Shown: one piece after another, positions 2,340 to 12,271 of the stretch
How the letters are laid out: every line of letters begins with the position of its first letter
How positions within the stretch are numbered: position 1 is the stretch's first letter
UHGV virus genome: UHGV-1333727
DNA: 12,808 nt
Source: a virus
Reading direction: 5' to 3' (one strand)
The notes under the pieces: generated by a model
What the model was told of the DNA's origin: nothing
Databases searched by the model: none
Seen by the model: only the letters and a program-made list of their open reading frames with translations
Made by a program: the position numbers and the translations under genes

Positions 2340-3008
2340 ATGTCTGAATTAATGGCGCTTAATGGGGCGAACGAAGTATTAACAATGTCTTCTCGTGAGA
2401 TCGCCAAGCTAACTGGTAAACGGCACGATCACATATTGAGAGACATTGACGCCATTGCCCCAAATTTGGGGGAATCAAGCAAATCAGTAACTTACAAAGG
2501 ATACAACAATCAAACACAGAGGGAATGGCTTTTAACTAAGCGTGACTCTTTGCTGGTTGTATCTGGCTATAGCGTTGAGTTACGTGCTCGCATCATCGAC
2601 CGCTGGCAGGAACTTGAAAAACGGGTACAGCAAAACGCCCCTGCAATTCCTCAAACATTAAGCGAAGCGTTGCGCCTTGCTGCCGATCTTGCTGAGGAAA
2701 AAGAACGGCTTGCACTGGTTAATAAGGAACTTGCGCCAAAAGCGGCTGTATGTGACGCGATAGTCAAAAACGATATGCACCGAACGGCTTCAGAGGTTGC
2801 TAAACCGCTGGGAATGTCAGCCGTAAAATTAAACAGAAAACTTTCGGCTGTTGGTGTTTACGATCTTCGCTGTCGCCGCCGTGTATTTAGTCAGTGGTTT
2901 ATTGATGAGGGCTACGGTGAAATGAGGGTAACTCACGATGGATATGAGCAGGCTGTATTCACTGCTAAAGGACAAGTATGGATCACTGAGCTTTTAACTT
3001 GTAACTAA
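2340..3008 (+). CDS. phage antirepressor, Rha-family N-terminal domain plus KilAC-type C-terminal domain (222 aa)
   Basis: ATG 2340 with GGAGA upstream. N-terminal ...LTMSSREIAKLTGKRHDHILRDIDAI... is the characteristic Rha regulatory-protein signature; C-terminal region resembles antirepressor KilAC domains. Assignment by recalled family signatures, not by search. Confidence 0.88.
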   Translation: MSELMALNGANEVLTMSSREIAKLTGKRHDHILRDIDAIAPNLGESSKSVTYKGYNNQTQREWLLTKRDSLLVVSGYSVELRARIIDRWQELEKRVQQNAPAIPQTLSEALRLAADLAEEKERLALVNKELAPKAAVCDAIVKNDMHRTASEVAKPLGMSAVKLNRKLSAVGVYDLRCRRRVFSQWFIDEGYGEMRVTHDGYEQAVFTAKGQVWITELLTCN

Positions 3009-3042: not shown

Positions 3043-4161
3043 ATGTCACAAAGAAAGATAAGCGATGAGCAATTGATCGCTGAATATAACAACGGTTTAA
3101 CGTATAAACAGATCGCTGAAAAATATTGCATGTCAAAACGCAACGTCGAGCGTCTGGGCGCAAAACTTGCGAAACGTGGTTTATTATCAACACGCCGCGC
3201 GCCTGGTTTTGGCGTCAATGGCGAGTCGTTGCTAGTCGATAAAAACGGCAATGTGATCATGCGCTGGATTAAAACAGCCCGTGACCGCGACGAAATGGAA
3301 CAGCTAATGGAAGCGGCCCGCGACGCTTTCACGGATGAGATACCACGCGCGGAGGCTGTGCCAGTGCCTGAAATTGATTTCCAAAAAAGCCTGGCCCTTT
3401 ATCCGGTATTCGATCTGCATATCGGGGCACTTGCTCACAAAGCAGAATGCGGCGAGAGCTACGACACTGGGATCGCTGAGCGCGTGTTAAATGACTTCTT
3501 TGACTACGCTGTGGGCGCCGCGCCGATGTCTGAAAAAGCCGTTTTGCTTCTCGGTGGCGACCTGCTTCACTCTGATGGAATGGTTCCTGTTACACCAACA
3601 AGCGGGCACATTCTTGATCAAGATAGTCGCTATGCAAAACTTGTCTATGTAGCGATCCGGTCGGTACGGCGGGCGGTCGGGAAGATGTTGTTAAATCATA
3701 AGGATGTAGAAATCCAGGTGTTATCCGGCAATCACGACCAGTCAGGAATGATCTGGCTACGTGCTGCGCTGGCAGCTTTTTACGAAGACGAACCGCGCGT
3801 AACTGTTGATGTGTCCCCTGCTATCGTCCACCACACGCAGTACGGCAAAACATTCCTCGCTTACCACCACGGGCACACTATCAAAAAGCCAGAAAATTTA
3901 TTGTCGGCTTGCGTATCTGACTGGCGGGAGGATTTCGGCAAGTCTGCGGCGGTTTACGCTCATTGCGGGCACTGGCATCATCAACGGCTGATTGAATCAT
4001 CGTTAGGCGTTGTTGAGTATCACGGCACGTTAGCGGGTAAAGACGCTTACTCAACTAATGGCGGCTGGCGGTCACGTCGTATGGCAGCGGTGATTATTTA
4101 CAGCCAGGATCATGGGGAGATCGGGCGCTTTGTTTATTACCCTGAATATTCCATTTTGTAA
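3043..4161 (+). CDS. HTH-domain protein fused to calcineurin-like (Mre11/SbcD-type) metallophosphoesterase core; putative replication-associated protein (372 aa)
   Basis: ATG 3043 with GAGGA upstream; stop 18 nt before the helicase start. N-terminus ...GLTYKQIAEKYCMSKRNVERLGAKLAKRGL is HTH-like. Ordered phosphoesterase motifs: FDLHIG (res 123-128), GGDLLH (171-176), GNHD (229-232), HHGH (275-278), GHWHH (309-313). Confidence 0.85.
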   Translation: MSQRKISDEQLIAEYNNGLTYKQIAEKYCMSKRNVERLGAKLAKRGLLSTRRAPGFGVNGESLLVDKNGNVIMRWIKTARDRDEMEQLMEAARDAFTDEIPRAEAVPVPEIDFQKSLALYPVFDLHIGALAHKAECGESYDTGIAERVLNDFFDYAVGAAPMSEKAVLLLGGDLLHSDGMVPVTPTSGHILDQDSRYAKLVYVAIRSVRRAVGKMLLNHKDVEIQVLSGNHDQSGMIWLRAALAAFYEDEPRVTVDVSPAIVHHTQYGKTFLAYHHGHTIKKPENLLSACVSDWREDFGKSAAVYAHCGHWHHQRLIESSLGVVEYHGTLAGKDAYSTNGGWRSRRMAAVIIYSQDHGEIGRFVYYPEYSIL

Positions 4162-4179: not shown

Positions 4180-5595
4180 ATGGTAACTGAGCAAATAAAC
4201 TCACTACGGCAGGAACGTGAAGCGTCAGTTATCGGCGGGCTGCTGTTAGGCGGCCTCACTCCTAACGCGCAAGATGTTCTCGCCACTCTGGATCCTGAAG
4301 TGTTCACGAGCCCGCTTTACAAACGTGCGTTTGAGGTTATCCGGGCGCAAGCCAGAAACAGGAATCTTATCGACGCGTTATTGGTTGGCGATGAGATTGG
4401 CAATGAAAACTTTGTTCCTCTGATGCAAACGGCGCGATCGTGTCCTTCTGCCGCAAACCTGAAAGGATACGCACAGCTACTACGTGAAGAGCACCAGCGG
4501 CGGCAGATGTTGGAACTCATCGACGATATGCGCTACAAACTGGAAACGGGGACGCTTGAGGTCGTCAAAGAGACGATGAAAGATTTTGATTCCCGGTATT
4601 CAAAATTGAAGGTAACGAAAGATAAGATCATTCCGGTTCTGTTGCGCGATGCGGTACAGGAATATACGGATGTTTTAAGCAAGCGCATGGAATGCGGTGT
4701 CAATTCTGACAACATCAAAACAGGTATAGAACCACTCGACGAAATGTTGGGCGGCATTAACGCTACTGATTTGGTACTTCTCGCCGGACGCCCTGGGTCT
4801 GGTAAATCTGCGTTGGCGCTGACAATTGCCCGCGCAGCCGCTGAACGCCCTTACCCTGGTGGTAAAGAACAGCGGGTTGGCGTTTTGCTCTTCACGCTTG
4901 AAATGTCACTCGATCAGATGACTGAGCGTGCTATCGCTGGCGCTGGTAATTTATCAACTGACTGCCTGCGCAATCCGGTAAAACTTGATGATGAGGGTTG
5001 GGCGCATGTAGGCCAGGGGATGAGCGCACTTGCTAATCTTGAGGTGTGGATCGTTGACGCGTCGCAGTTGACGGTTGAGGAAATACGCGCAACAACGGAA
5101 CGCATGAAGCAGGAACACCCGAACCTGGGTATGGTAATGATTGACTACATCGGTCTAATGAAGCTGGCTAAGGCCGAACGTCACGATCTCGCTGTAGGGC
5201 AATTGTCATGGTCGTTGAAGATGATGGCGAAAGAATTGCGCGTACCAGTGTTGGCGCTGGCGCAATTATCCCGCCGCGTTGAGGAACGACCGAACAAGCG
5301 CCCGAATAATTCTGATCTGCGCGATTCCGGGAATCTTGAACAGGACGCAGACCGGATCATCATGGTCTATCGCGACGGGTACTATGATGAACAGTCTGTT
5401 GCCCGCGAATATATGGAGATCATTGTTTCGAAAAACCGTCACGGGAAAACGGGGACTGTTTACCAGCGATTTGACGACAACGGCAATATCCTCCCTTGCG
5501 ACCAGGCCCGCGCAGCGTCTGCATGTATTCAGTCGATGAATCATCGCACAAGTCGATTTAACCAACGAAACAACCAGAATAACGCATCCTTTTAA
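4180..5595 (+). CDS. replicative DNA helicase, DnaB family (phage type, 471 aa)
   Basis: ATG 4180 with GGAGG upstream. N-terminal ...EREASVIGGLLLGG... DnaB N-domain signature, Walker A GRPGSGKS, ...MVMIDYIGLM..., ...LAQLSR..., and DLRDSGNLEQDADRIIMVYRD (DnaB motif H4/arginine finger region). Confidence 0.95.
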   Translation: MVTEQINSLRQEREASVIGGLLLGGLTPNAQDVLATLDPEVFTSPLYKRAFEVIRAQARNRNLIDALLVGDEIGNENFVPLMQTARSCPSAANLKGYAQLLREEHQRRQMLELIDDMRYKLETGTLEVVKETMKDFDSRYSKLKVTKDKIIPVLLRDAVQEYTDVLSKRMECGVNSDNIKTGIEPLDEMLGGINATDLVLLAGRPGSGKSALALTIARAAAERPYPGGKEQRVGVLLFTLEMSLDQMTERAIAGAGNLSTDCLRNPVKLDDEGWAHVGQGMSALANLEVWIVDASQLTVEEIRATTERMKQEHPNLGMVMIDYIGLMKLAKAERHDLAVGQLSWSLKMMAKELRVPVLALAQLSRRVEERPNKRPNNSDLRDSGNLEQDADRIIMVYRDGYYDEQSVAREYMEIIVSKNRHGKTGTVYQRFDDNGNILPCDQARAASACIQSMNHRTSRFNQRNNQNNASF

Positions 5596-5615
5596 TTAAC
5601 TTGAGCAAACGGCTT

Positions 5616-5650
5616 ACCGGAAAGTTGACCGCTTTCTGGTGGCTGTTTTT
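5616..5650 (+). terminator. candidate intrinsic terminator/attenuator between helicase gene and nin-like operon
   Basis: ACCGGAAAG (5616-5624), loop TTGACCG, CTTTCTGGT (5632-5640, one G-U pair), then GGCTGTTTTTGTG. The U-tract is offset about 5 nt from the stem, so likely weak. Confidence 0.3.
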
Positions 5651-5674
5651 GTGCTTAAAACGAGGCGAAAAACA

Positions 5675-6232
5675 ATGAGCATTGAACTTGAAGCAAAAAT
5701 TATCAATATCCTTGAACTTGATGGCATCGACACAATGCACCAGTTACGCCAGAAAACAGGATTATCAGCGGAATATGACGAAGCCGGATGCTTACCTGAG
5801 ACAATTAAACACTTAATCGACACTGGTATTGTTGAGCGTGTATATACATATTTTGGACCGCGCCGCCGCTTGTTGGGGTATCGAATTAAATATTTGTATG
5901 CGCAACGGCGCGATCGTGTGGCGGCGTTATTTAGTGACTACAGCGTTAAAAAGCGTATGCGCGACATTAGCGCTGAAACGGGAATACCGTGGAATTATCT
6001 TTCTCGTACTATGCGTTTAATGGTGATTGATGAAACGCTTTGCGTTGATCCAAATAGGCACGGGGTTAATTTTTACTCACTGTTTAAACCTGGGCGATTC
6101 GGTCACGCTAATGATTTGGCGTTTGACTTTGACAGTCGTCTGAACGAATACCGGAAAAATAACGGCCTGCTACCGGATAAACCAGTATTTGAGATTGAAA
6201 AACTTAACGGCGAAACGGGGTTGGAATTATGA
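5675..6232 (+). CDS. hypothetical protein (185 aa), first gene of nin-like operon
   Basis: The ORF track starts at a GTG (5639) with no RBS; the ATG at 5675 has GAGG about 9 nt upstream and is preferred. Stop overlaps the next start (ATGA at 6229-6232). No recognisable motif. Confidence 0.75.
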   Translation: MSIELEAKIINILELDGIDTMHQLRQKTGLSAEYDEAGCLPETIKHLIDTGIVERVYTYFGPRRRLLGYRIKYLYAQRRDRVAALFSDYSVKKRMRDISAETGIPWNYLSRTMRLMVIDETLCVDPNRHGVNFYSLFKPGRFGHANDLAFDFDSRLNEYRKNNGLLPDKPVFEIEKLNGETGLEL

Positions 6233-6435
6233 GACGGGTAATTTTTTATTCAGTTGAAACGTTTGTTGACGAATCTCACTTTAAATTCGCATGCGATCCT
6301 TGCGGCACAATGGTTTATACGCCGCCACTAATGCGCAAGTATAAGCACGTAAAATTTAACCGGGCTTTTGTGCCGATTCGTTACGCTTTGCAGGCGTTGC
6401 GCGGTGAATTACGAAACACAATGCGGATTGTGTAA
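6229..6435 (+). CDS. hypothetical small protein (68 aa)
   Basis: ATG 6229 overlaps the upstream stop (ATGA), indicating translational coupling; contains a single CDPCG motif. Same-strand position inside the operon supports a real gene. Confidence 0.6.
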   Translation: MRRVIFYSVETFVDESHFKFACDPCGTMVYTPPLMRKYKHVKFNRAFVPIRYALQALRGELRNTMRIV

Positions 6436-6444
6436 GGGGCGACC

Positions 6445-6642
6445 ATGAATAGGGAATTAGATTTGACCGTGGAAGACTTAAGCACAATTGCGGAATACAT
6501 GCGCGGCGACGATCCTGATAAGCCTGTTGTTGTTGATATGAGGTACTTAAAAAGCGCTTTTATGACAAGCTCGCGCCTAATTTCTTTGCGGGCGATCATG
6601 TATGCGCGGGCACAGTGGAAAAATAGCAACGGTGTATCATGA
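6445..6642 (+). CDS. hypothetical small protein (65 aa)
   Basis: ATG 6445 with AAGGGG 5 nt upstream; its stop overlaps the ninB start (ATGA at 6639-6642). Confidence 0.6.
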   Translation: MNRELDLTVEDLSTIAEYMRGDDPDKPVVVDMRYLKSAFMTSSRLISLRAIMYARAQWKNSNGVS

Positions 6643-7070
6643 GGCAAATCAGATTTGAAATAGTAAACGACGCCGTAAAAGAAAACGCTATCAGGCAGAT
6701 AAGGGAGATCCAGCCTGATAGCAAAAGCCCGCTGGTAATTACCATCCAGGAGAAAACCCGCTCACTGAGTCAAAACAGCCTTTTATGGGCGCTATTAACA
6801 GACGTTAGCGATCAGGTTAATTGGTACGGTAAAAAGCTGTCACCGGAAGACTGGAAGGCGGTATTCACTGCCGGGCTTAAGAAATATGGCGTTGTCCCTA
6901 ATCTGGATAAATCCGGCTTTGTTGTGCTGGGAACGTCAACCAGCCGGATGAGTAAAACAGAATTTAGCGAATTAATTGAACTGATCTACTCGTTCGGCGC
7001 TGAACATAATGTTCAATGGTCTGGTGACACTAAGTTGAACGAGGAATTTATAAAACGCTGGGGGCAATAA
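6639..7070 (+). CDS. ninB: NinB-family recombination protein (lambda NinB/Orf homologue, 143 aa)
   Basis: Protein aligns by eye along its length with lambda NinB as recalled from memory: shared blocks ...VITIQE..RSL.QN.LW..L.DVS.QV.W.G..L..E.WK.VFTA.LK...VVPNL...GFVV.G.STSRM...EF.EL.ELI..FG.E..V.WS... Confidence 0.9.
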   Translation: MRQIRFEIVNDAVKENAIRQIREIQPDSKSPLVITIQEKTRSLSQNSLLWALLTDVSDQVNWYGKKLSPEDWKAVFTAGLKKYGVVPNLDKSGFVVLGTSTSRMSKTEFSELIELIYSFGAEHNVQWSGDTKLNEEFIKRWGQ

Positions 7071-7246
7071 TGGTTAGTTATTACATGGCTAAACCTACAG
7101 GCATTTTGTATAAGATTGATGGCGAATACGTTTATTATTTTCACAACCAGGCGCGTGATTGGCGATTGTGTCACGCGCACTTTAAGCACGAAATAGAAAA
7201 TCACCCTGAATATTTTATCAAAGTTGACAATGTAACTGTGGCGTAA
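7070..7246 (+). CDS. hypothetical small protein (58 aa, MVSYYMAKPTGILYKIDGEYVYYFHNQARDWRLCHAHFKHEIENHPEYFIKVDNVTVA)
   Basis: Found by manual translation (below ORF-track cut-off). ATG at 7070 overlaps the ninB stop (TAATG); stop TAA 7244-7246, 14 nt before the next gene's start. Confidence 0.5.
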   Translation: MVSYYMAKPTGILYKIDGEYVYYFHNQARDWRLCHAHFKHEIENHPEYFIKVDNVTVA

Positions 7247-7260
7247 TTGAGGATAAGCAA

Positions 7261-7920
7261 ATGAATAAACTTAAAGTAATTGGCGTGATTAGCCATCGCA
7301 CTAACCCTGAGTGTTACCCATCGTTTGAGGTAACAACATGCCGCACAGAATATAATTTTGGATCATACTATTTATTGGGTGTTCGCGCGGATGGCGGCAC
7401 TTATTCGGTTATGGCTGCAAGCTGGAAATTTGATAAATACGCTAATTTATCTAATAAGGATGATGACGGCATGAATAAAGAAAGTGAGATCATTGATGAA
7501 TTAATCGAAGATGAGCGGCATGATTGCGAAACGCAACCGGAAAAAACTGAATGGTTGGCAGGCGAAAAGCCTCCTGTTGGTGTGTGGCTTGATTGTGTAG
7601 GTCTTACGAGCGGAACGGTTCTCGATGTCGTTAAATTTAAATATGTTGGTGATAAATGGGCTATATGTGAAAGCAAGGAAGATTTAGGCTTAGAGAGGCC
7701 GATATCATGGACGACATGCGCTTTCAGGATTCATGTTGGTCCGATAGAAAAGGCGCTTGCTGAAATAGCGTTCGCACTTGCAACTAAGGTCATGGGTGAA
7801 GACGCGGCAAAAGAGATTGACTTTAAACGTGACAACGATTTTACGTGCGATTATCGCAATATGGCGCAAGCAATTATTGATGGATGTATCGGACACGTTG
7901 AATACACGGGGAAAAGATAA
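7261..7920 (+). CDS. hypothetical protein (219 aa), two regions separated by an acidic linker
   Basis: ATG 7261 with GAGGA 8 nt upstream; stop overlaps the downstream start (TAATG at 7918-7922). No recognisable catalytic motif. Confidence 0.8.
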   Translation: MNKLKVIGVISHRTNPECYPSFEVTTCRTEYNFGSYYLLGVRADGGTYSVMAASWKFDKYANLSNKDDDGMNKESEIIDELIEDERHDCETQPEKTEWLAGEKPPVGVWLDCVGLTSGTVLDVVKFKYVGDKWAICESKEDLGLERPISWTTCAFRIHVGPIEKALAEIAFALATKVMGEDAAKEIDFKRDNDFTCDYRNMAQAIIDGCIGHVEYTGKR

Positions 7921-8150
7921 TGGATAAGACGGCAACAATTCTTCTTAGTCGCCCTGCCATCTGCCGTATGCTTGGGGGAATTAGCAGGGGAACGTTCTAT
8001 TCATGGCGTAAAAAGTGGGAGGAAAACGGAACTCCATTCCCGGACCCTGTTGATGTGTTGGGGACCGGGCGGGGCGTCATGTACCGCTATCAGGAGGTGA
8101 TGCGGTTCTTTGATAAGATCGGATTAACGCCAGCCAGGGATAAGACGTAA
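7920..8150 (+). CDS. AlpA-family (MerR-like) small DNA-binding protein, probable excisionase/integrase regulator (76 aa)
   Basis: ATG 7920 with GGGGA upstream. ...LLSRPAICRMLGGISRGTFYSWRKKWEENGTPFPDPVDVLGTGRGVMYRYQEVMRFFD fits the AlpA/Xis pattern (HTH followed by 'FP.P...G.R...W...EV..W'); it sits next to an integrase. Confidence 0.8.
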   Translation: MDKTATILLSRPAICRMLGGISRGTFYSWRKKWEENGTPFPDPVDVLGTGRGVMYRYQEVMRFFDKIGLTPARDKT

Positions 8151-9304
8151 TCCGCAAATTTATTTAACGCCTCCTTTTGTTCATCAAGATAATCATATTT
8201 GTCGTACACTGCCAGTATTCCCCTGAGTGAATGGCCTAATACCTTTTCCGCGACATGTACCGGAACACCTATAGCTGAAAGGTGTGTACGGCACGTCCTG
8301 CGGAGGTCGTGACAGGACCATGATTTGCCTCCCATCCTTTTACGCACGAAGATTGCAGCTACTTTTATCACTGATGCGTTTACTGGTCTGTTCCCTCCGT
8401 TAATCACTGGCGGGAACACATAATCATACTCATGGGAGGATAATACCTCCCTGAGCATTTTTATCGACAAATCTGATAATCCACGCCTGATTTCACTTCT
8501 TGTCTTCGCCACCGCCGCCGGGACGGTCCATACTCCGTTGTCCAGGTCGAGGTGTTCCCTTCTCATTTTCTGCAACTCCCCCACCCTGCACCCGGTTAGC
8601 AATAATAGCTTTAATGCTATCTTGTTCTGACGGTAGATCTGCGAATCATCCACCGTTCGCCAGAAATGGCCTATTTCATCGCACGATAAATAACGCTCGC
8701 CAACCGCATAATTTTCGCCTACGTCAACAACCCTGATATTGTTTATCGCTGTACTGGTCATTAGCCCGCGCCGGATAGCGCTGTTCACAACAATCTTCAT
8801 TCGCTTGAGTATCAGCCCAGCCGTAACCGCGTGGCCCGCCGCAGTGATCTCGCCGAATATGTCCATCCATTGTTTAGTGCTGACATCATCGGCAATATAC
8901 TCACCGAATTTATCGACAACATGGCGCTTAAGCGCGCTCCTGACGTCATTATATGCAACCAGCTTAATAACGTTCGGCAGGGATAAATAGTCACTCACAA
9001 TGGCGCTTATTGTTAATTTGCCACGCTCAATATTTATCGCTTGCTTTACTGAAACAGTTGGGTTTTTCCCCTTCGCTAATAGCTCTTTGTATTCTGCCAC
9101 CGCGTAGCGTGCATCTTTCAATGTCATACTGCCGTAATCGCCAATCTTCATCCTTACAGGCTTACCGTTGAACCTGTACCTGAACTGGAAAATAATTTTC
9201 CCCTTCGGGCTTATCCTGGCAGACAAGCCGTCGCGATCCGCTATCTCGTTCGGGCCGTCATATGGCTTGTTTGCTATTGCGCGTAATTTCGTATCCGTCA
9301 GCAT
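8090..9304 (-). CDS. int: tyrosine recombinase / integrase, P4-type (404 aa)
   Basis: ATG at 9304 (minus) with AGAGG 7 nt upstream. N-terminal LTDTKLRAIANKP...GLSARISPKGKIIFQFRYRFNGKPVRMKIGDY is the P4-type integrase arm-binding N-domain; catalytic region has ...TGCRVGE (Arg), HDLRRT (H-x-x-R) and ...GHSLRGILAVYDKYDY (His...Tyr). Confidence 0.95.
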   Translation of the reverse strand: MLTDTKLRAIANKPYDGPNEIADRDGLSARISPKGKIIFQFRYRFNGKPVRMKIGDYGSMTLKDARYAVAEYKELLAKGKNPTVSVKQAINIERGKLTISAIVSDYLSLPNVIKLVAYNDVRSALKRHVVDKFGEYIADDVSTKQWMDIFGEITAAGHAVTAGLILKRMKIVVNSAIRRGLMTSTAINNIRVVDVGENYAVGERYLSCDEIGHFWRTVDDSQIYRQNKIALKLLLLTGCRVGELQKMRREHLDLDNGVWTVPAAVAKTRSEIRRGLSDLSIKMLREVLSSHEYDYVFPPVINGGNRPVNASVIKVAAIFVRKRMGGKSWSCHDLRRTCRTHLSAIGVPVHVAEKVLGHSLRGILAVYDKYDYLDEQKEALNKFADYVLSLAGVNPILSKNRITS

Positions 9305-9320
9305 TCTGATACCTCTTTTT

Positions 9321-9342
9321 TTTGGTCACGATTTGGTACACA
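9321..9342. repeat. 22-bp direct repeat, copy 1 (TTTGGTCACGATTTGGTACACA)
   Basis: Matches copy 2 at 9562-9583 at 21 of 22 positions; contains GGTCACGAT. Confidence 0.7.
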
Positions 9343-9350
9343 GTTTTATC

Positions 9351-9472
9351 TGAACGGATATTAACACCATTGAACGGATTTAAACACACGACAGGATGAT
9401 TGAGATGTAACTTAGTGAATTTAAATGATATTTTTTATCAACCGTGAACGAGTCTGAACGGGATTGAACACC
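9351..9472. repeat. cluster of five TGAAC(G)-type iteron-like motifs
   Basis: TGAACGGATATTAACACC (9351-9368) and TGAACGGATTTAAACACA (9371-9388) are 20 bp apart; TGAACGAG (9445), TGAACGGGA (9455) and TGAACACC (9465) are phased at exactly 10 bp. Confidence 0.6.
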
Positions 9473-9561
9473 ACGAATCGTTACTGTCTGGAATGGTTAG
9501 CTTTGTGAATAATAATTTATAAAACAGTATGTTGCAGTGCTTTTGTTTTTGGTTTTGGGTA

Positions 9562-9583
9562 TTTGGTCACTATTTGGTACACA
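9562..9583. repeat. 22-bp direct repeat, copy 2 (TTTGGTCACTATTTGGTACACA), preceded by phased TTTGG tracts
   Basis: Copy of 9321-9342 with one mismatch; contains GGTCACTAT. Immediately upstream, TTTTTGG / TTTTGGG / ATTTGGT recur at roughly 8-10-bp spacing (9545-9580). Confidence 0.7.
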
Positions 9584-9608
9584 AAAAGAAACGAGGCGTT
9601 AGCCTCGT
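9583..9608 (-). terminator. rho-independent terminator of tail-fibre gene
   Basis: On the minus strand: stem ACGAGGC, loop TAAC, stem GCCTCGT (plus 9591-9608), followed by UUCUUUUU (plus 9583-9590), about 35 nt after the stop at 9641-9643. Confidence 0.6.
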
Positions 9609-9640
9609 TTCGCGCGGCGATGTTCTTCGCACATCACCTC

Positions 9641-11845
9641 TTATTCTTCGCTTCCGGTCAACTGACTGATAAGCGCTTCAAGTTTTGCTATCCGCTCATC
9701 CATTGCGGCAATGTTAGCTTTCAGGCTTGCGTTCTCCTCTTCCAGTTCGGTGACGCGGTTATCCGTTTCGCGTGCCACCTGGACAAGTAAACCAGTCACC
9801 GCCGCATAGTCAACATTAAGGTAACGTGTTTCTTCTCGTAGCTCGTTGCCGTCAACGGTCGGACCCTGCAATTCTTCACCGTAACGAGTAAACGATCCTA
9901 CGGCTTCCGGTAGCGCCTCCATTACTTCCTGTGCAATAACGCCAGCATAAGGAAGGCCGTTTTCCTTGAGCGTGTAGGTGTACCCGTTCATTTTGCGGAT
10001 TAATTCAGTGGCTTCACCTATAACCTGAATGTTATCTTTAAGGTCGCGGTCAGATGATTGGTGAAGTGTCTGGCATGTGATATTACCGCTAACTTCTGCG
10101 GTGGCGCTTTTAATCTTATACTCTACTGAGAGATCACGGACTTCAACCCTCCCATCGTGGCGAACAATAAGATCACCGTTTGTTTCACCTTTTGCGTTTT
10201 TAGCCCTGATGTGAACTTCTCCAAGCGTATCAGTATTTGTAGGCGCAAAAATAACGCCGCGTTCCGACTGATCCTCATTTTGGAACCATACATGGGCGGT
10301 TCCACTTTTTGAACGCAGGTATAGTGAAGGTGTTGCTTTAGTGATCGACAGATCACCTGACATAATGTCGCCGGATTTTTTCACCTGCGCATCGTTAGTT
10401 ACGTTACCAAGTCCAACATCCGATTTCGACGGCTTGTATTTGGTTCCGTATAGCTCATTTATGTTAAAAGTACCATTGTTGAGTCTATTATCGTTACTAG
10501 AGTAAATCTTTACTCTACCGCTTTCGTAATCGATATTAATAGCTGACCACGTATCGCCGCACCGCGAGAATATACCAGAACCGTGGCTGAAAATTGTTGA
10601 TTCGCTACCTGTTGGTTTTCCTGACCTCCAGAAACACCCACCTTTCGCCCTTAGCTCTTGTAGTAGTTCCTTATCGGTCATTTTACCATCCAAAGTAAGA
10701 CCGCTACCGCCAAGACCAAAAGCGCCTATAAGCATAGCATTAGAAAGGCCTAAATCTGCTTTAGTAGGTTTGTTTACCTGGTCGTAAATCCTTGCTGCTG
10801 GGCTTTCAATAAATCCTGAAGGTGCATTGTCTTGTTTAACAAATCCTTCAGGAATGTATAATTCCGTGTTGCCAGTCTGCGCCAGCACCGCTACTTTTGT
10901 GCCTTGAATATAAGATCGCTGGTAGCACCAGACCTCGATATAGCCGTCACCTTTAACCAGGCCGTAACGCATTTGACTATTATTGGGAAGGTTTGGTGAA
11001 CCGAGTCGGCGAATACTTAAAAATTTAGATATATTTTCACTGGTTACTTCGCCTGTGTCGTTAAGATCTCGAGCGGAGATCTCTATAAAGTCAATATTCC
11101 CGTAACTTAAACCGTAGCCACCGCCATTTGTAACCATTAGCGTTAAGTGGCACTCTGAAAACTTTGGATCGCTAAGTTTAGCAATCTTAACGTAAGCGCC
11201 ATTACCGCTAGTATTAACAGGCCAAGCACATTGGACCATTGGGCTGGTAAGCCTTCCCATTTGATTCAGATATTTTTGCGCCCTGTTCTCTGATGTTTTG
11301 GCGTTGGTTTCGCTTGTTTTCGCTGCCGTCTCACTTGCCTTAGCGTTGGTTTCTGATGTTTTCGCTGCCGTGGCGGATTTTGCAGCCGCTGTTTTTGACG
11401 CTTCTGCTGCGTTTTTGTCGGATCCTGTTTTTTGAGCGTTGGCGGTTGATTTGGCTGTCTCTGCGCGAATGTTGGTAAGAAGCTGATCCAACTGACCTTC
11501 GCCGCCAAAATCCTCCCACCACTCGACAGCGGCGGCGATCTCTGTTTCCTTGCCCTGGTAGTAACGCAGGGTTTCAGCCACATCCTGAGCAAGCCCATCA
11601 ACTGAGATCGAGTCAGATAGCAGGATGCTGAATTTTGTCCCGGCAGGGATGGCGGGGTTAGCCGCTGGCGTCACTGACAGTTCAGTGCCGCTTTTAATTT
11701 CTGTGATGGTAAAGATCTGTACCGGATTGCCAACAGCAATGAGCGTGCAACCTACACGAATAAGAGAAAGCGGCGCGGAAAAGTTTGTTCCCGTGCCTGT
11801 AACAGTATTGCCGTTGATGGCAATTGTTCCAGTTGTGTAAATCAT
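9641..11845 (-). CDS. phage tail fibre protein with Stf-like Ala/Lys/Thr/Ser repeat region and C-terminal intramolecular chaperone (peptidase S74-like) auto-processing domain (734 aa)
   Basis: ATG 11845 (minus) with GGAG upstream. Residues about 125-190 carry AAKTSETNAK-type repeats like those in lambdoid side tail fibres. C-terminal ~140 aa (...SSDRDLKDNIQVIGEATELIRKMNGYTYTLKENGLPYAGVIAQEV... then coiled coil) match the endosialidase-type chaperone domain with the Ser...Lys (S-x4-K) dyad. Confidence 0.9.
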   Translation of the reverse strand: MIYTTGTIAINGNTVTGTGTNFSAPLSLIRVGCTLIAVGNPVQIFTITEIKSGTELSVTPAANPAIPAGTKFSILLSDSISVDGLAQDVAETLRYYQGKETEIAAAVEWWEDFGGEGQLDQLLTNIRAETAKSTANAQKTGSDKNAAEASKTAAAKSATAAKTSETNAKASETAAKTSETNAKTSENRAQKYLNQMGRLTSPMVQCAWPVNTSGNGAYVKIAKLSDPKFSECHLTLMVTNGGGYGLSYGNIDFIEISARDLNDTGEVTSENISKFLSIRRLGSPNLPNNSQMRYGLVKGDGYIEVWCYQRSYIQGTKVAVLAQTGNTELYIPEGFVKQDNAPSGFIESPAARIYDQVNKPTKADLGLSNAMLIGAFGLGGSGLTLDGKMTDKELLQELRAKGGCFWRSGKPTGSESTIFSHGSGIFSRCGDTWSAINIDYESGRVKIYSSNDNRLNNGTFNINELYGTKYKPSKSDVGLGNVTNDAQVKKSGDIMSGDLSITKATPSLYLRSKSGTAHVWFQNEDQSERGVIFAPTNTDTLGEVHIRAKNAKGETNGDLIVRHDGRVEVRDLSVEYKIKSATAEVSGNITCQTLHQSSDRDLKDNIQVIGEATELIRKMNGYTYTLKENGLPYAGVIAQEVMEALPEAVGSFTRYGEELQGPTVDGNELREETRYLNVDYAAVTGLLVQVARETDNRVTELEEENASLKANIAAMDERIAKLEALISQLTGSEE

Positions 11846-12022: not shown

Positions 12023-12271
12023 ATGAAAAACATGTTCAAAGTGGTTTTGTTCGCTGCGGCTGTAGCTCTTACTGGATGTGCTGTTGATAAGGAAGCTGCA
12101 TTGCATAACCTGCCGAATAGTGGAGTAATTCCACAGGATGTTGTTTATGATGTTAACGGGCATCTTGTCTATGACACTGAAAAACTGCCTTATACTGGTC
12201 AATGGTGTCACGAACTCGATCACAACATGCGCCGCATCGGTAGCCCTTCTAACTGTGTAGCTAACTACTAA
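12023..12271 (+). CDS. small lipoprotein (82 aa); candidate phage superinfection-exclusion / receptor-masking lipoprotein
   Basis: ATG 12023 with TGAGG upstream. Signal peptide MKNMFKVVLFAAAVALTG followed by Cys (lipobox LTGC); mature part ~63 aa with three further Cys; followed directly by a strong terminator. The functional call is inference from context. Confidence 0.85.
   Translation: MKNMFKVVLFAAAVALTGCAVDKEAALHNLPNSGVIPQDVVYDVNGHLVYDTEKLPYTGQWCHELDHNMRRIGSPSNCVANY

Follow-up and report, generated by a model that had tools for sequence, protein, structure and literature searches.

A five-gene block around ninB as a probable, ordinary early-operon segment of an mEp021-like coliphage

In phage lambda, the nin region (ren, ninB/orf ... 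ninI) lies between P and Q, and its NinB protein, also named Orf, is functional as a homodimer without phage partners. Along lambda O-P-ren and from ninB through Q, reading frames overlap by at least 4 nt at 10 of 11 junctions, and the genes joined in this way encode unrelated activities. Closer to the DNA analyzed here are the mEpimmI phages, a group classed as non-lambdoid for which antitermination by Gp17 has been described and whose frequency in the human gut reportedly equals that of lambdoid phages (PMC11893012). The supplements of that paper name none of the genes considered below; in public records of mEp021-type phages, these genes are labeled "hypothetical protein," and the 58-aa gene of mEp021 is unannotated.

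Phage identity and gene layout

The DNA analyzed, hereafter the window, is a stretch of 12,808 nucleotides (UHGV-1333727), and the relevant features are as follows.

5608..5647, + strand: hairpin between the helicase and 185-aa genes; candidate terminator or processing site
5675-6232, + strand: 185-aa gene, open reading frame (ORF) with ATG start
6229-6435, + strand: 68-aa gene, ORF
6445-6642, + strand: 65-aa gene, ORF
6639-7070, + strand: NinB, 143 aa, ORF
7070-7246, + strand: 58-aa gene, ORF
7261-7920, + strand: 219-aa gene, in the same packed block and outside the five-gene finding; no family matches
7920-8150, + strand: 76-aa AlpA/Xis-like HTH gene, last in the block (HTH_23, E 4.8e-7; phrog_4745, E 2.2e-10)

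Nucleotide similarity and synteny place the window among the mEp021-like (mEpimmI) temperate coliphages. Its block shares gene order and 87-93% nucleotide identity with those of mEp515, mEp021, mEp044, mEp554, mEp010, mEp013, and MagusPhagus, and MagusPhagus further shares with the window the order helicase ... int, tail fibre. Gene order was kept in 7 phage records and 42 IMG/VR contigs. The block was present, within mEpimmI prophages, in 35 of 5,426 complete E. coli genomes (approximately 0.6%), and this count was the same for the 68- and 65-aa genes, for this type of ninB, and for the whole block; the small genes were found in all 35 genomes and in the 42 contigs, each being truncated in one contig. 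A distant relative, L020, retains the block order with a helicase 55% and a NinB 67% identical to those of the window. The sequence-only reading had placed these genes in a lambdoid nin hotspot for accessory genes, a view at odds with the non-lambdoid classification of the phage (PMC11893012), the presence of the small genes in all relatives examined, and their typical GC content. Altogether, the results demonstrate that the block is lineage-core and syntenic. It is probably the distal part of a replication/recombination operon, and the five genes would be an ordinary early-operon segment of an already sequenced E. coli phage group.

The five ORFs and their junctions were confirmed as previously claimed, with ATGA at 6229, a 9-nt gap after the stop of the 68-aa gene, ATGA at 6639, and TAATG at 7068-7072. 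Tight packing runs past 7246, through the 219-aa and Xis/AlpA-like genes; the latter shares 1 nt with the 219-aa gene and 61 nt with the 3' end of the convergent integrase gene, and the 219-aa gene keeps its place in every relative, with identities of 50-94%. The 185-aa gene also has an in-frame GTG at 5639, but this codon is not its conserved start, because MagusPhagus has a 1-nt deletion between 5639 and the ATG.

Upstream of the block, a terminator scan flagged positions 5614-5642, and RNA folding of the hairpin gave -28.2 kcal/mol (z -4.2). A short U-run follows the stem in the window; conservation across 18 relatives extends to the stem and not to the U-tract, and the hairpin is absent from L020. 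We rejected its designation as a firm intrinsic terminator since the U-tract is not conserved, and treat it as a candidate. A search of the window against Rfam matched no RNA family.

Coding status and protein families

All five ORFs are intact in 14 relatives with 80-99% nucleotide identity. Pooled in-frame dN/dS values were 0.118, 0.204, 0.122, and 0.060 for the 185-, 68-, 65-, and 58-aa genes, respectively, compared to 1.3-3.3 in the two alternative frames, and variable columns were concentrated at codon position 3 (in the 185-aa gene, 103 versus 32 and 18). A lack of conservation would have pointed to non-coding DNA; the ORFs are instead conserved and under purifying selection, so that the substitution patterns identify all five genes as protein-coding.

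NinB matched Pfam PF05772 over residues 5-128 of its 143 aa (E 2.7e-46; 157.1 bits, with a cutoff of 23.8) and phrog_72 (E 3.9e-44), and it is 53.5% identical to lambda NinB (Orf) over 142 aa (E 8e-55); on these alignments it is a bona fide NinB/Orf. The four proteins flanking it had no Pfam or NCBIfam matches. BLASTP against lambda Ren and NinC-NinI returned nothing, with the best value against NinC-NinI not below E 0.029; the 68-, 65-, and 58-aa proteins did not match Pfam Nin families at E ≤ 0.1, even when diverged alignment members were included, and profile searches of the PDB found nothing. PADLOC, which models defence rather than anti-defence, matched none of the five proteins at E ≤ 0.1. 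None of the four flanking proteins belongs by these searches to a known Nin/Ren family, apart from a non-significant Ren-like resemblance of the 185-aa protein. That resemblance (phrog_142, E 0.0029 over 47 aa) contained no stretch significant alone, and Ren homology was rejected when hhalign of the family alignment against lambda Ren gave a probability of 1%.

The 185-aa protein is a homologue of mEp021 gp08 and matched phrog_1687 (E 1.6e-7), and a profile search of 1.84 billion representatives recovered only 8 relatives. Its AlphaFold2 (AF2) model (pLDDT 74.8), built like that of the 58-aa protein from a shallow alignment (15 and 4 sequences), predicts winged-helix domains at residues 3-71 and 95-136 followed by a disordered tail. 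In the model, an H-T-H precedes a beta-hairpin wing and structural matches agree with this fold; over the whole chain, the model is closest to the tandem winged helix of the RNA binder SelB. The best match among PDB sequences reached only E=1 and covered the winged helix alone. Homologues have been named MarR or Lrp/AsnC by Pharokka/PHROGs and PGAP. Membership in either family was rejected, as no Pfam (E ≤ 0.1) or NCBIfam match was obtained; MarR has dimerisation helices and Lrp/AsnC a RAM domain, whereas the model lacks both and has a second winged helix where Lrp/AsnC has its RAM domain.

Three allelic classes of this protein (185, 175, and 178 aa) share 29-37% identity between classes and have in common a near-invariant C-terminal motif, YRKxNGLLP..FE..KLN. 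The gene in the window is a recombinant, with domains one and two derived from different classes, and is unique in this among 65 loci. A DNA motif, ACCGGAWA, chosen post hoc, occurs at 5 sites versus 0.7 expected, including the hairpin and two positions in the sequence that encodes the tail; its candidacy as a cis element was discarded, since the internal sites are lost through synonymous changes in mEp021, L018, and L020, and the tail is therefore conserved as protein, not as DNA. We likewise rejected the idea, modeled on lambda O/ori, that an origin or iteron array lies within or close to the gene, as no repeat families were found in 5400-7400. Altogether, the predicted structure of the 185-aa protein comprises two winged helices in tandem and a disordered C-terminal peptide, and this peptide, conserved at the protein level, offers a concrete handle for experiments.

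In the 68-aa protein, an N-terminal strand and a YTPPLxRKYxH segment are conserved, while residues 14-28 are hypervariable and come in three or more unrelated versions, with conserved sequence to either side. The ORF is intact in all relatives but one, and the L020 homologue is 40% identical over 42 aa; the NCBI annotation pipeline (PGAP) systematically misses this gene. The protein had no Pfam, PDB, or PADLOC match. A common allele has YYPWEVYD in place of the CDPCG sequence singled out by the sequence-only reading, and a CxxC zinc site or zinc ribbon, for which four conserved metal ligands would be expected, was rejected because the protein has only two Cys, both replaced (W, Y) in that allele; zinc-ribbon Pfam matches within the family are weak (E 0.015-0.044, 2 of 8 members).

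The 65-aa protein matched phrog_21123 (E 2.2e-10) and has 99 close E. coli relatives; a homologue that is 46% identical, Eta_0038 of Serratia phage Eta, adjoins terS with no NinB nearby. Word-indexed searches with the 65- and 58-aa proteins recovered only E. coli relatives, and the 68- and 65-aa proteins are clade-restricted orphans. The 58-aa gene is under the strongest constraint (dN/dS 0.06), and its product models as a small Sm/SH3-like beta-barrel. The His-rich character once ascribed to it does not hold across alleles, with the histidines replaced in another allele, and a His-rich site was rejected on the same lack of conservation. As a highly constrained predicted beta-barrel adjoining NinB, this protein is a second handle for experiments.

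Gene packing and competing explanations

We consider it likely that this region forms, in an mEp021-like phage, the promoter-distal part of an early replication/recombination operon in which independent genes are packed in the ordinary manner. The operon would comprise the replication genes, the DnaB-type helicase gene, the genes for the 185-, 68-, and 65-aa proteins, NinB, and the 58- and 219-aa proteins, and the Xis-like gene, ending against the convergent integrase gene. The block would be co-transcribed with the replication genes under N-like (Gp17) antitermination, and the conserved hairpin ahead of it may terminate or process the transcript. Each gene appears to be preceded, 8-12 nt upstream, by a G-rich Shine-Dalgarno sequence of its own, and the ATGA and TAATG overlaps would reflect a compact genome and the ordinary re-initiation of translation, as in lambda nin, with no obligate complex. 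By analogy with lambda, NinB would serve as a mediator on ssDNA coated with SSB, in the manner of RecFOR. For the 185-aa protein, a role as a nucleic-acid-binding adaptor or regulator is proposed, in which the exchangeable winged-helix part would set specificity and the constant tail would dock onto a conserved partner; the 68-, 65-, and 58-aa proteins are probably independent early accessory proteins.

Several features of the junctions bear on this explanation. Between 2340 and 8150 of the window, 4 of 9 junctions overlap, including the one between the 219-aa and Xis-like genes outside the finding. A DNA methyltransferase (MTase) gene lies between the 65-aa gene and ninB in mEp021, mEp515, and L063, in L052, ninB and the 58-aa gene are split by an HNH endonuclease gene, and both inserted genes take the same overlap style; in L020, a 182-nt gap follows ninB. 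The L052 NinB is chimeric, with two thirds swapped and 53% identity to the NinB of the window, whereas the 65- and 58-aa proteins beside it are nearly unchanged (98% and 97% identical). Mosaic breakpoints occur within and between block genes, and all allele combinations of neighboring genes are found. The earlier proposal that such coupling implies fixed stoichiometry is not supported, given these insertions, the gap, the free mixing of alleles, and the lambda overlaps between unrelated genes. Phages normally pack their genes with stop and start codons overlapping, and this is not evidence of a complex or an anti-defence system; what stands of the sequence-only reading is a real, co-directional set of genes packed around a genuine NinB, and what lacks support is the stoichiometry, the nin hotspot, and the anti-defence role. 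A tempting over-interpretation, in which overlap is taken to mean a complex or anti-defence, is thereby removed. It should be added that order kept across approximately 55-67% protein identity is also expected of a functional module and counts against independence.

It is unlikely that the small genes, perhaps together with the 185-aa gene, are host-takeover or anti-defence factors riding in the early operon, as had been suggested. They are small, early, clade-restricted orphans, and both the hypervariable residues 14-28 of the 68-aa protein and the three allelic classes of the 185-aa protein show diversification typical of proteins facing variable targets. However, they bear no likeness to systems described in PADLOC, Pfam, NCBIfam, or the PDB, their GC content is typical of the neighborhood, and they are lineage-core genes under strong purifying selection rather than presence/absence cargo; the variable cargo at the junctions of the block consists instead of the MTase and HNH genes. 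With no defence-system matches and genes that are not cargo-like, the proposal was not supported.

Similarly doubtful is a joint reading in which the 185-aa protein is a modular adaptor, with a logic comparable to that of lambda O, and the orphans form a lineage-specific accessory set for replication-recombination or counter-defence. Candidate docking partners of the tail under such a reading are the phage helicase and NinB, and the set, previously unrecognised, would consist of the three orphan proteins that always travel with NinB.

That the small proteins are dedicated partners of NinB, held by translational coupling at fixed ratios in a recombination-mediator complex, we regard as quite improbable. 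The order 65 aa-NinB-58 aa is found in every mEpimmI genome examined and in L020, in most genomes ninB has a stop/start overlap with each of its two neighbors, and the 58-aa gene, under the strongest constraint (dN/dS 0.06), was never found away from NinB. Nevertheless, the MTase gene parts the 65-aa gene from ninB in three relatives, the HNH gene of L052 parts ninB from the 58-aa gene where NinB was swapped and its neighbors kept, and L020 has its gap after ninB; the 65-aa homologue of phage Eta has no NinB nearby, lambda joins unrelated genes in the same overlap style, and the lambda Orf homodimer needs no phage partners. Finally, that some small ORFs, especially the 68-aa one, are non-coding spacer is very improbable and is already refuted by the substitution pattern: PGAP skips the 68-aa ORF in every E. 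coli prophage inspected and in some of them also the 58-aa ORF, and neither has a family match, but almost all of roughly 60 relatives have the ORFs intact, in-frame dN/dS is 0.20 (68-aa) and 0.06 (58-aa) versus more than 1.3 out of frame, L020 keeps both homologues at 37-40% identity, and the AF2 model of the 58-aa protein is confident.

Comparison with lambda and mEp021-type phages

The preferred explanation, an ordinary operon segment of independent genes, leaves the mEpimmI phages with four lineage-core early proteins without assigned function, a result of modest importance. Like the lambda nin region, the block has NinB/Orf just downstream of the replication genes, is a run of small genes with ATGA-type overlaps in an N-antiterminated early operon, and is preceded by a terminator-like hairpin. 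In contrast, lambda nin lies upstream of Q and the late genes, whereas the operon of the block ends at xis/int; lambda uses P, whereas the phage of the window encodes a DnaB helicase; lambda Ren and NinC-NinI have no match among the non-NinB proteins of the block; and the phage, unlike lambda, is non-lambdoid in the published classification (PMC11893012). Relative to mEp021-type phages, the window differs from mEp021 and mEp515 in carrying no MTase gene, and its block genes are direct orthologues of mEp021 gp08-gp04 and their homologues in mEp515, mEp044, mEp554, mEp010, mEp013, and MagusPhagus, with gene order and junctions alike.

Gene layout and coding status of the block

An ORF list and reading of the sequence placed five co-directional genes in the block at 5675-7246, and the ORFs and junctions were as the sequence-only reading had described them: an ATGA at 6229, a 9-nt gap between the 68-aa and 65-aa genes, an ATGA at 6639, and a TAATG at 7068-7072. 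Every block start is preceded at 8-12 nt by a G-rich Shine-Dalgarno run of its own.

Features of the block and its surroundings (strand where recorded; the five block genes from ORF list and sequence)
2340-3008, Ant/Rha gene, upstream of the 372-aa gene
3043-4161, 372-aa protein matching phrog_704 (E = 1e-140; labelled "DNA repair exonuclease")
4180-5595, DnaB-type helicase, directly before the block
5608-5647, hairpin between the helicase and 185-aa genes (-28.2 kcal/mol, z -4.2)
5675-6232, +, 185-aa gene
6229-6435, +, 68-aa gene
6445-6642, +, 65-aa gene
6639-7070, +, NinB gene, 143 aa
7070-7246, +, 58-aa gene
7261-7920, 219-aa protein, after the 58-aa gene
7920-8150, +, AlpA/Xis-like HTH protein, after the 219-aa gene
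8090-9304, -, integrase, convergent with the AlpA/Xis-like gene
9641-11845, -, tail fibre, 734 aa, with a Peptidase_S74 chaperone domain

The conserved start of the 185-aa gene is ATG 5675 rather than the in-frame GTG 5639 upstream: a GAGG lies 9-11 nt before the ATG, the interval between the two codons has lost 1 nt in MagusPhagus, and divergence of the 175-aa allele starts exactly at the ATG.

At 87-93% identity, the block region matched 7 phage records and 35 E. coli chromosomes; 14 of these relatives were used in the coding tests. The ORFs were intact in all 14, except that the 58-aa gene of MagusPhagus is cut short at 46 aa. In the annotated frame, pooled dN/dS was 0.118, 0.204, 0.122, and 0.060 for the 185-, 68-, 65-, and 58-aa genes, respectively, compared to 1.3-3.3 in the other two frames. 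These sequence comparisons show the five ORFs to be real, conserved genes. In the RefSeq E. coli prophages inspected (L005-L009, L013, and L014), the 68-aa gene was never annotated by the NCBI pipeline (PGAP), and the 58-aa gene is annotated only sometimes in E. coli prophages; the 68-aa gene, intact and under purifying selection yet unannotated, is a systematic annotation gap.

The 68- plus 65-aa pair, this ninB type, and the whole block were each found in 35 of 5,426 complete E. coli genomes, one copy each. In IMG/VR, the 185-aa family occurred in 42 contigs and the 58-aa family in 41, essentially the same ~50- to 57-kb genomes, and a scripted survey recovered the order 185/175 aa, 68 aa, 65 aa, NinB, 58 aa, 219 aa, and Xis-like in 42 of 42 loci, with the 68-aa gene truncated in one and the 65-aa gene in another. 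A far more distant relative, L020 (helicase 55% and NinB 67% identical), retains the block order, with homologues of the 185-aa (29% identity, E = 7e-9), 68-aa (40%, E = 2e-10), and 58-aa (37%, E = 1.5e-8) proteins and one of the 65-aa protein recognised by alignment. The block genes are thus lineage-core rather than variable cargo. In GC content (0.40-0.47) they are similar to neighbouring genes.

Phage identity and operon setting

The closest records to the block, Escherichia phages mEp515, mEp021, mEp044, mEp554, mEp010, mEp013, and MagusPhagus, are members of the mEpimmI group, ~54-kb Nus-dependent temperate phages that have been described as non-lambdoid and as a candidate new family and that encode the N-like antiterminator Gp17 (PMC11893012). 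The block sequences are already in public records, listed as hypothetical proteins from a phage group that has been described; "conserved, uncharacterised" is an apt label for the genes. Since the window gene order is that of mEp021 gp09 to gp01 and of MagusPhagus, the block is the distal part of the replication/recombination operon of this group. Close gene packing runs beyond its right edge, up to 8150. Under Gp17 antitermination, the block and the replication genes would be co-transcribed, with overlapping stops and starts serving ordinary re-initiation.

The hairpin at 5608-5647 is kept in close relatives and absent from L020, and the U-run after it is not conserved; the hairpin, positionally analogous to lambda tR2, may be a terminator or a processing site. 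An Rfam search matched no RNA family, a search for iterons found none, and a DNA motif picked post hoc as a cis element was not conserved.

The 372-aa protein has weak N-terminal HTH matches and no significant Pfam domain; given its position directly before the helicase in every relative, it is a conserved, uncharacterised replication-module partner. A 605-aa protein at 441-2258 carries an HNH_3 endonuclease domain (E = 2e-11) and, after it, a long region rich in Lys, Glu, and Gln that is probably coiled-coil; its operon position is highly variable, relatives having zinc-ribbon, Lin1244, or BRO genes there. The 61-nt convergent overlap of the Xis/AlpA-like and integrase genes is kept in relatives; early-operon read-through would thus be antisense to int and could serve in its regulation. 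The tail-fibre gene directly follows the integrase gene (8090-11845), as in MagusPhagus, which places the window in the phage (attP) configuration, unlike the E. coli relatives, integrated beside ogt/abgT or dgcM. An 82-aa ORF at 12023-12271 has a lipoprotein-like signal (..ALTGC..), in a region where mEpimmI phages reportedly encode Lpp superinfection-exclusion lipoproteins (PMC11893012).

Proteins of the block

The block NinB matched PF05772 (E = 2.7e-46) and shares 53.5% identity with lambda NinB/Orf; by these matches it is a genuine NinB and a clear member of that family, and may, like its lambda counterpart, serve as a RecFOR-like mediator.

The 185-aa protein matched phrog_1687, labelled MarR family (E = 1.6e-7), and no Pfam or NCBIfam model. 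Its family is tiny: a word-indexed search gave 26 clusters, and 1.84 billion proteins included just 8 representatives. Over the first ~150 residues, identity between its three allelic classes (185, 175, and 178 aa) is only 29-37%, but all end in a nearly invariant C-terminal peptide, LNEYRKNNGLLPDKPVFEIEKLN (in L020, YRKENGLLPQAIDFEADKLN). The AlphaFold model (pLDDT 74.8) predicts two tandem winged-helix domains and a low-confidence tail, and its viral-model matches were generic tandem winged-helix proteins only; similarity to lambda Ren was unsupported. The protein may be a nucleic-acid-binding adaptor or regulator, in which an exchangeable specificity part is joined to a constant docking peptide. 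The window's gene is itself recombinant, pairing a class A first winged-helix domain with a second domain of the type that elsewhere accompanies class B; among 65 loci this hybrid, with breakpoints at ~5780-5980, occurs in the window only.

The 68- and 65-aa proteins had no match in Pfam, PDB, or PADLOC; the 65-aa protein belongs to phrog_21123. In the 68-aa protein, a hypervariable segment lies between conserved flanks, MRxVIFxSVxT and YTPPLxRKYxH. The CDPCG (CxxC) motif singled out by the sequence-only reading falls within that segment and is not conserved, nor is the His-rich motif of the 58-aa protein, and no evidence was found for the nin-hotspot and anti-defence reading. A small-barrel fold was predicted among the block proteins, beside the tandem winged-helix fold. 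The 68-, 65-, and 58-aa proteins would act independently. A reading of these genes as a modular winged-helix adaptor together with an accessory set linked to NinB is improbable. The features that had made the block look special are either normal or unsupported.

Junctions, recombination, and comparison with lambda

Overlapping junctions had been taken to imply fixed stoichiometry. Nucleotide identity profiles placed mosaic breakpoints inside and between block genes, and alleles of the 185-, 68-, and 58-aa genes were found in every combination among 65 loci. In mEp021, mEp515, and L063, a DNA methyltransferase gene separates the 65-aa gene from ninB. This insert, lacking in the window, is of N4/N6 type (mEp021 locus L001, 7051-7788; mEp515 locus L003, 4057-4788), and the L063 enzyme is only 55% identical to that of mEp021. 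In L052 (IMGVR_UViG_2737471838_000004), an HNH homing endonuclease gene (152 aa; region 4965-5835) separates ninB from the 58-aa gene; NinB there is chimeric, its first ~46 aa of local type and its C-terminal two thirds replaced (53% identity overall), while neighbours on both sides remain 97-98% identical. The arrangement resembles the outcome of homing with co-conversion. In L020, ninB is followed by a 182-nt gap and junctions elsewhere do not overlap, and the 65-aa homologue of Serratia phage Eta adjoins terS, with no NinB nearby. These data show that recombination is free and insertions are tolerated between neighbouring block genes. That inserted genes take up the same overlap style points to a general packing habit.

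None of the junction or allele evidence supports an obligate stoichiometric complex, and the fixed-stoichiometry claim gives way to the tolerated insertions, the free mixing of alleles, the Eta homologue without NinB, and the overlaps of lambda itself. In the window, 4 of 9 junctions overlap between 2340 and 8150, one of them outside the block; in lambda O-P-ren and ninB-ninC-ninD-ninE-ninF-ninG-ninH-ninI-Q, 10 of 11 do, mostly by 4 nt, although the products there include a recombination mediator, nuclease, phosphatase, and antiterminator. Coupling of the kind seen in the block is normal for phage early operons.
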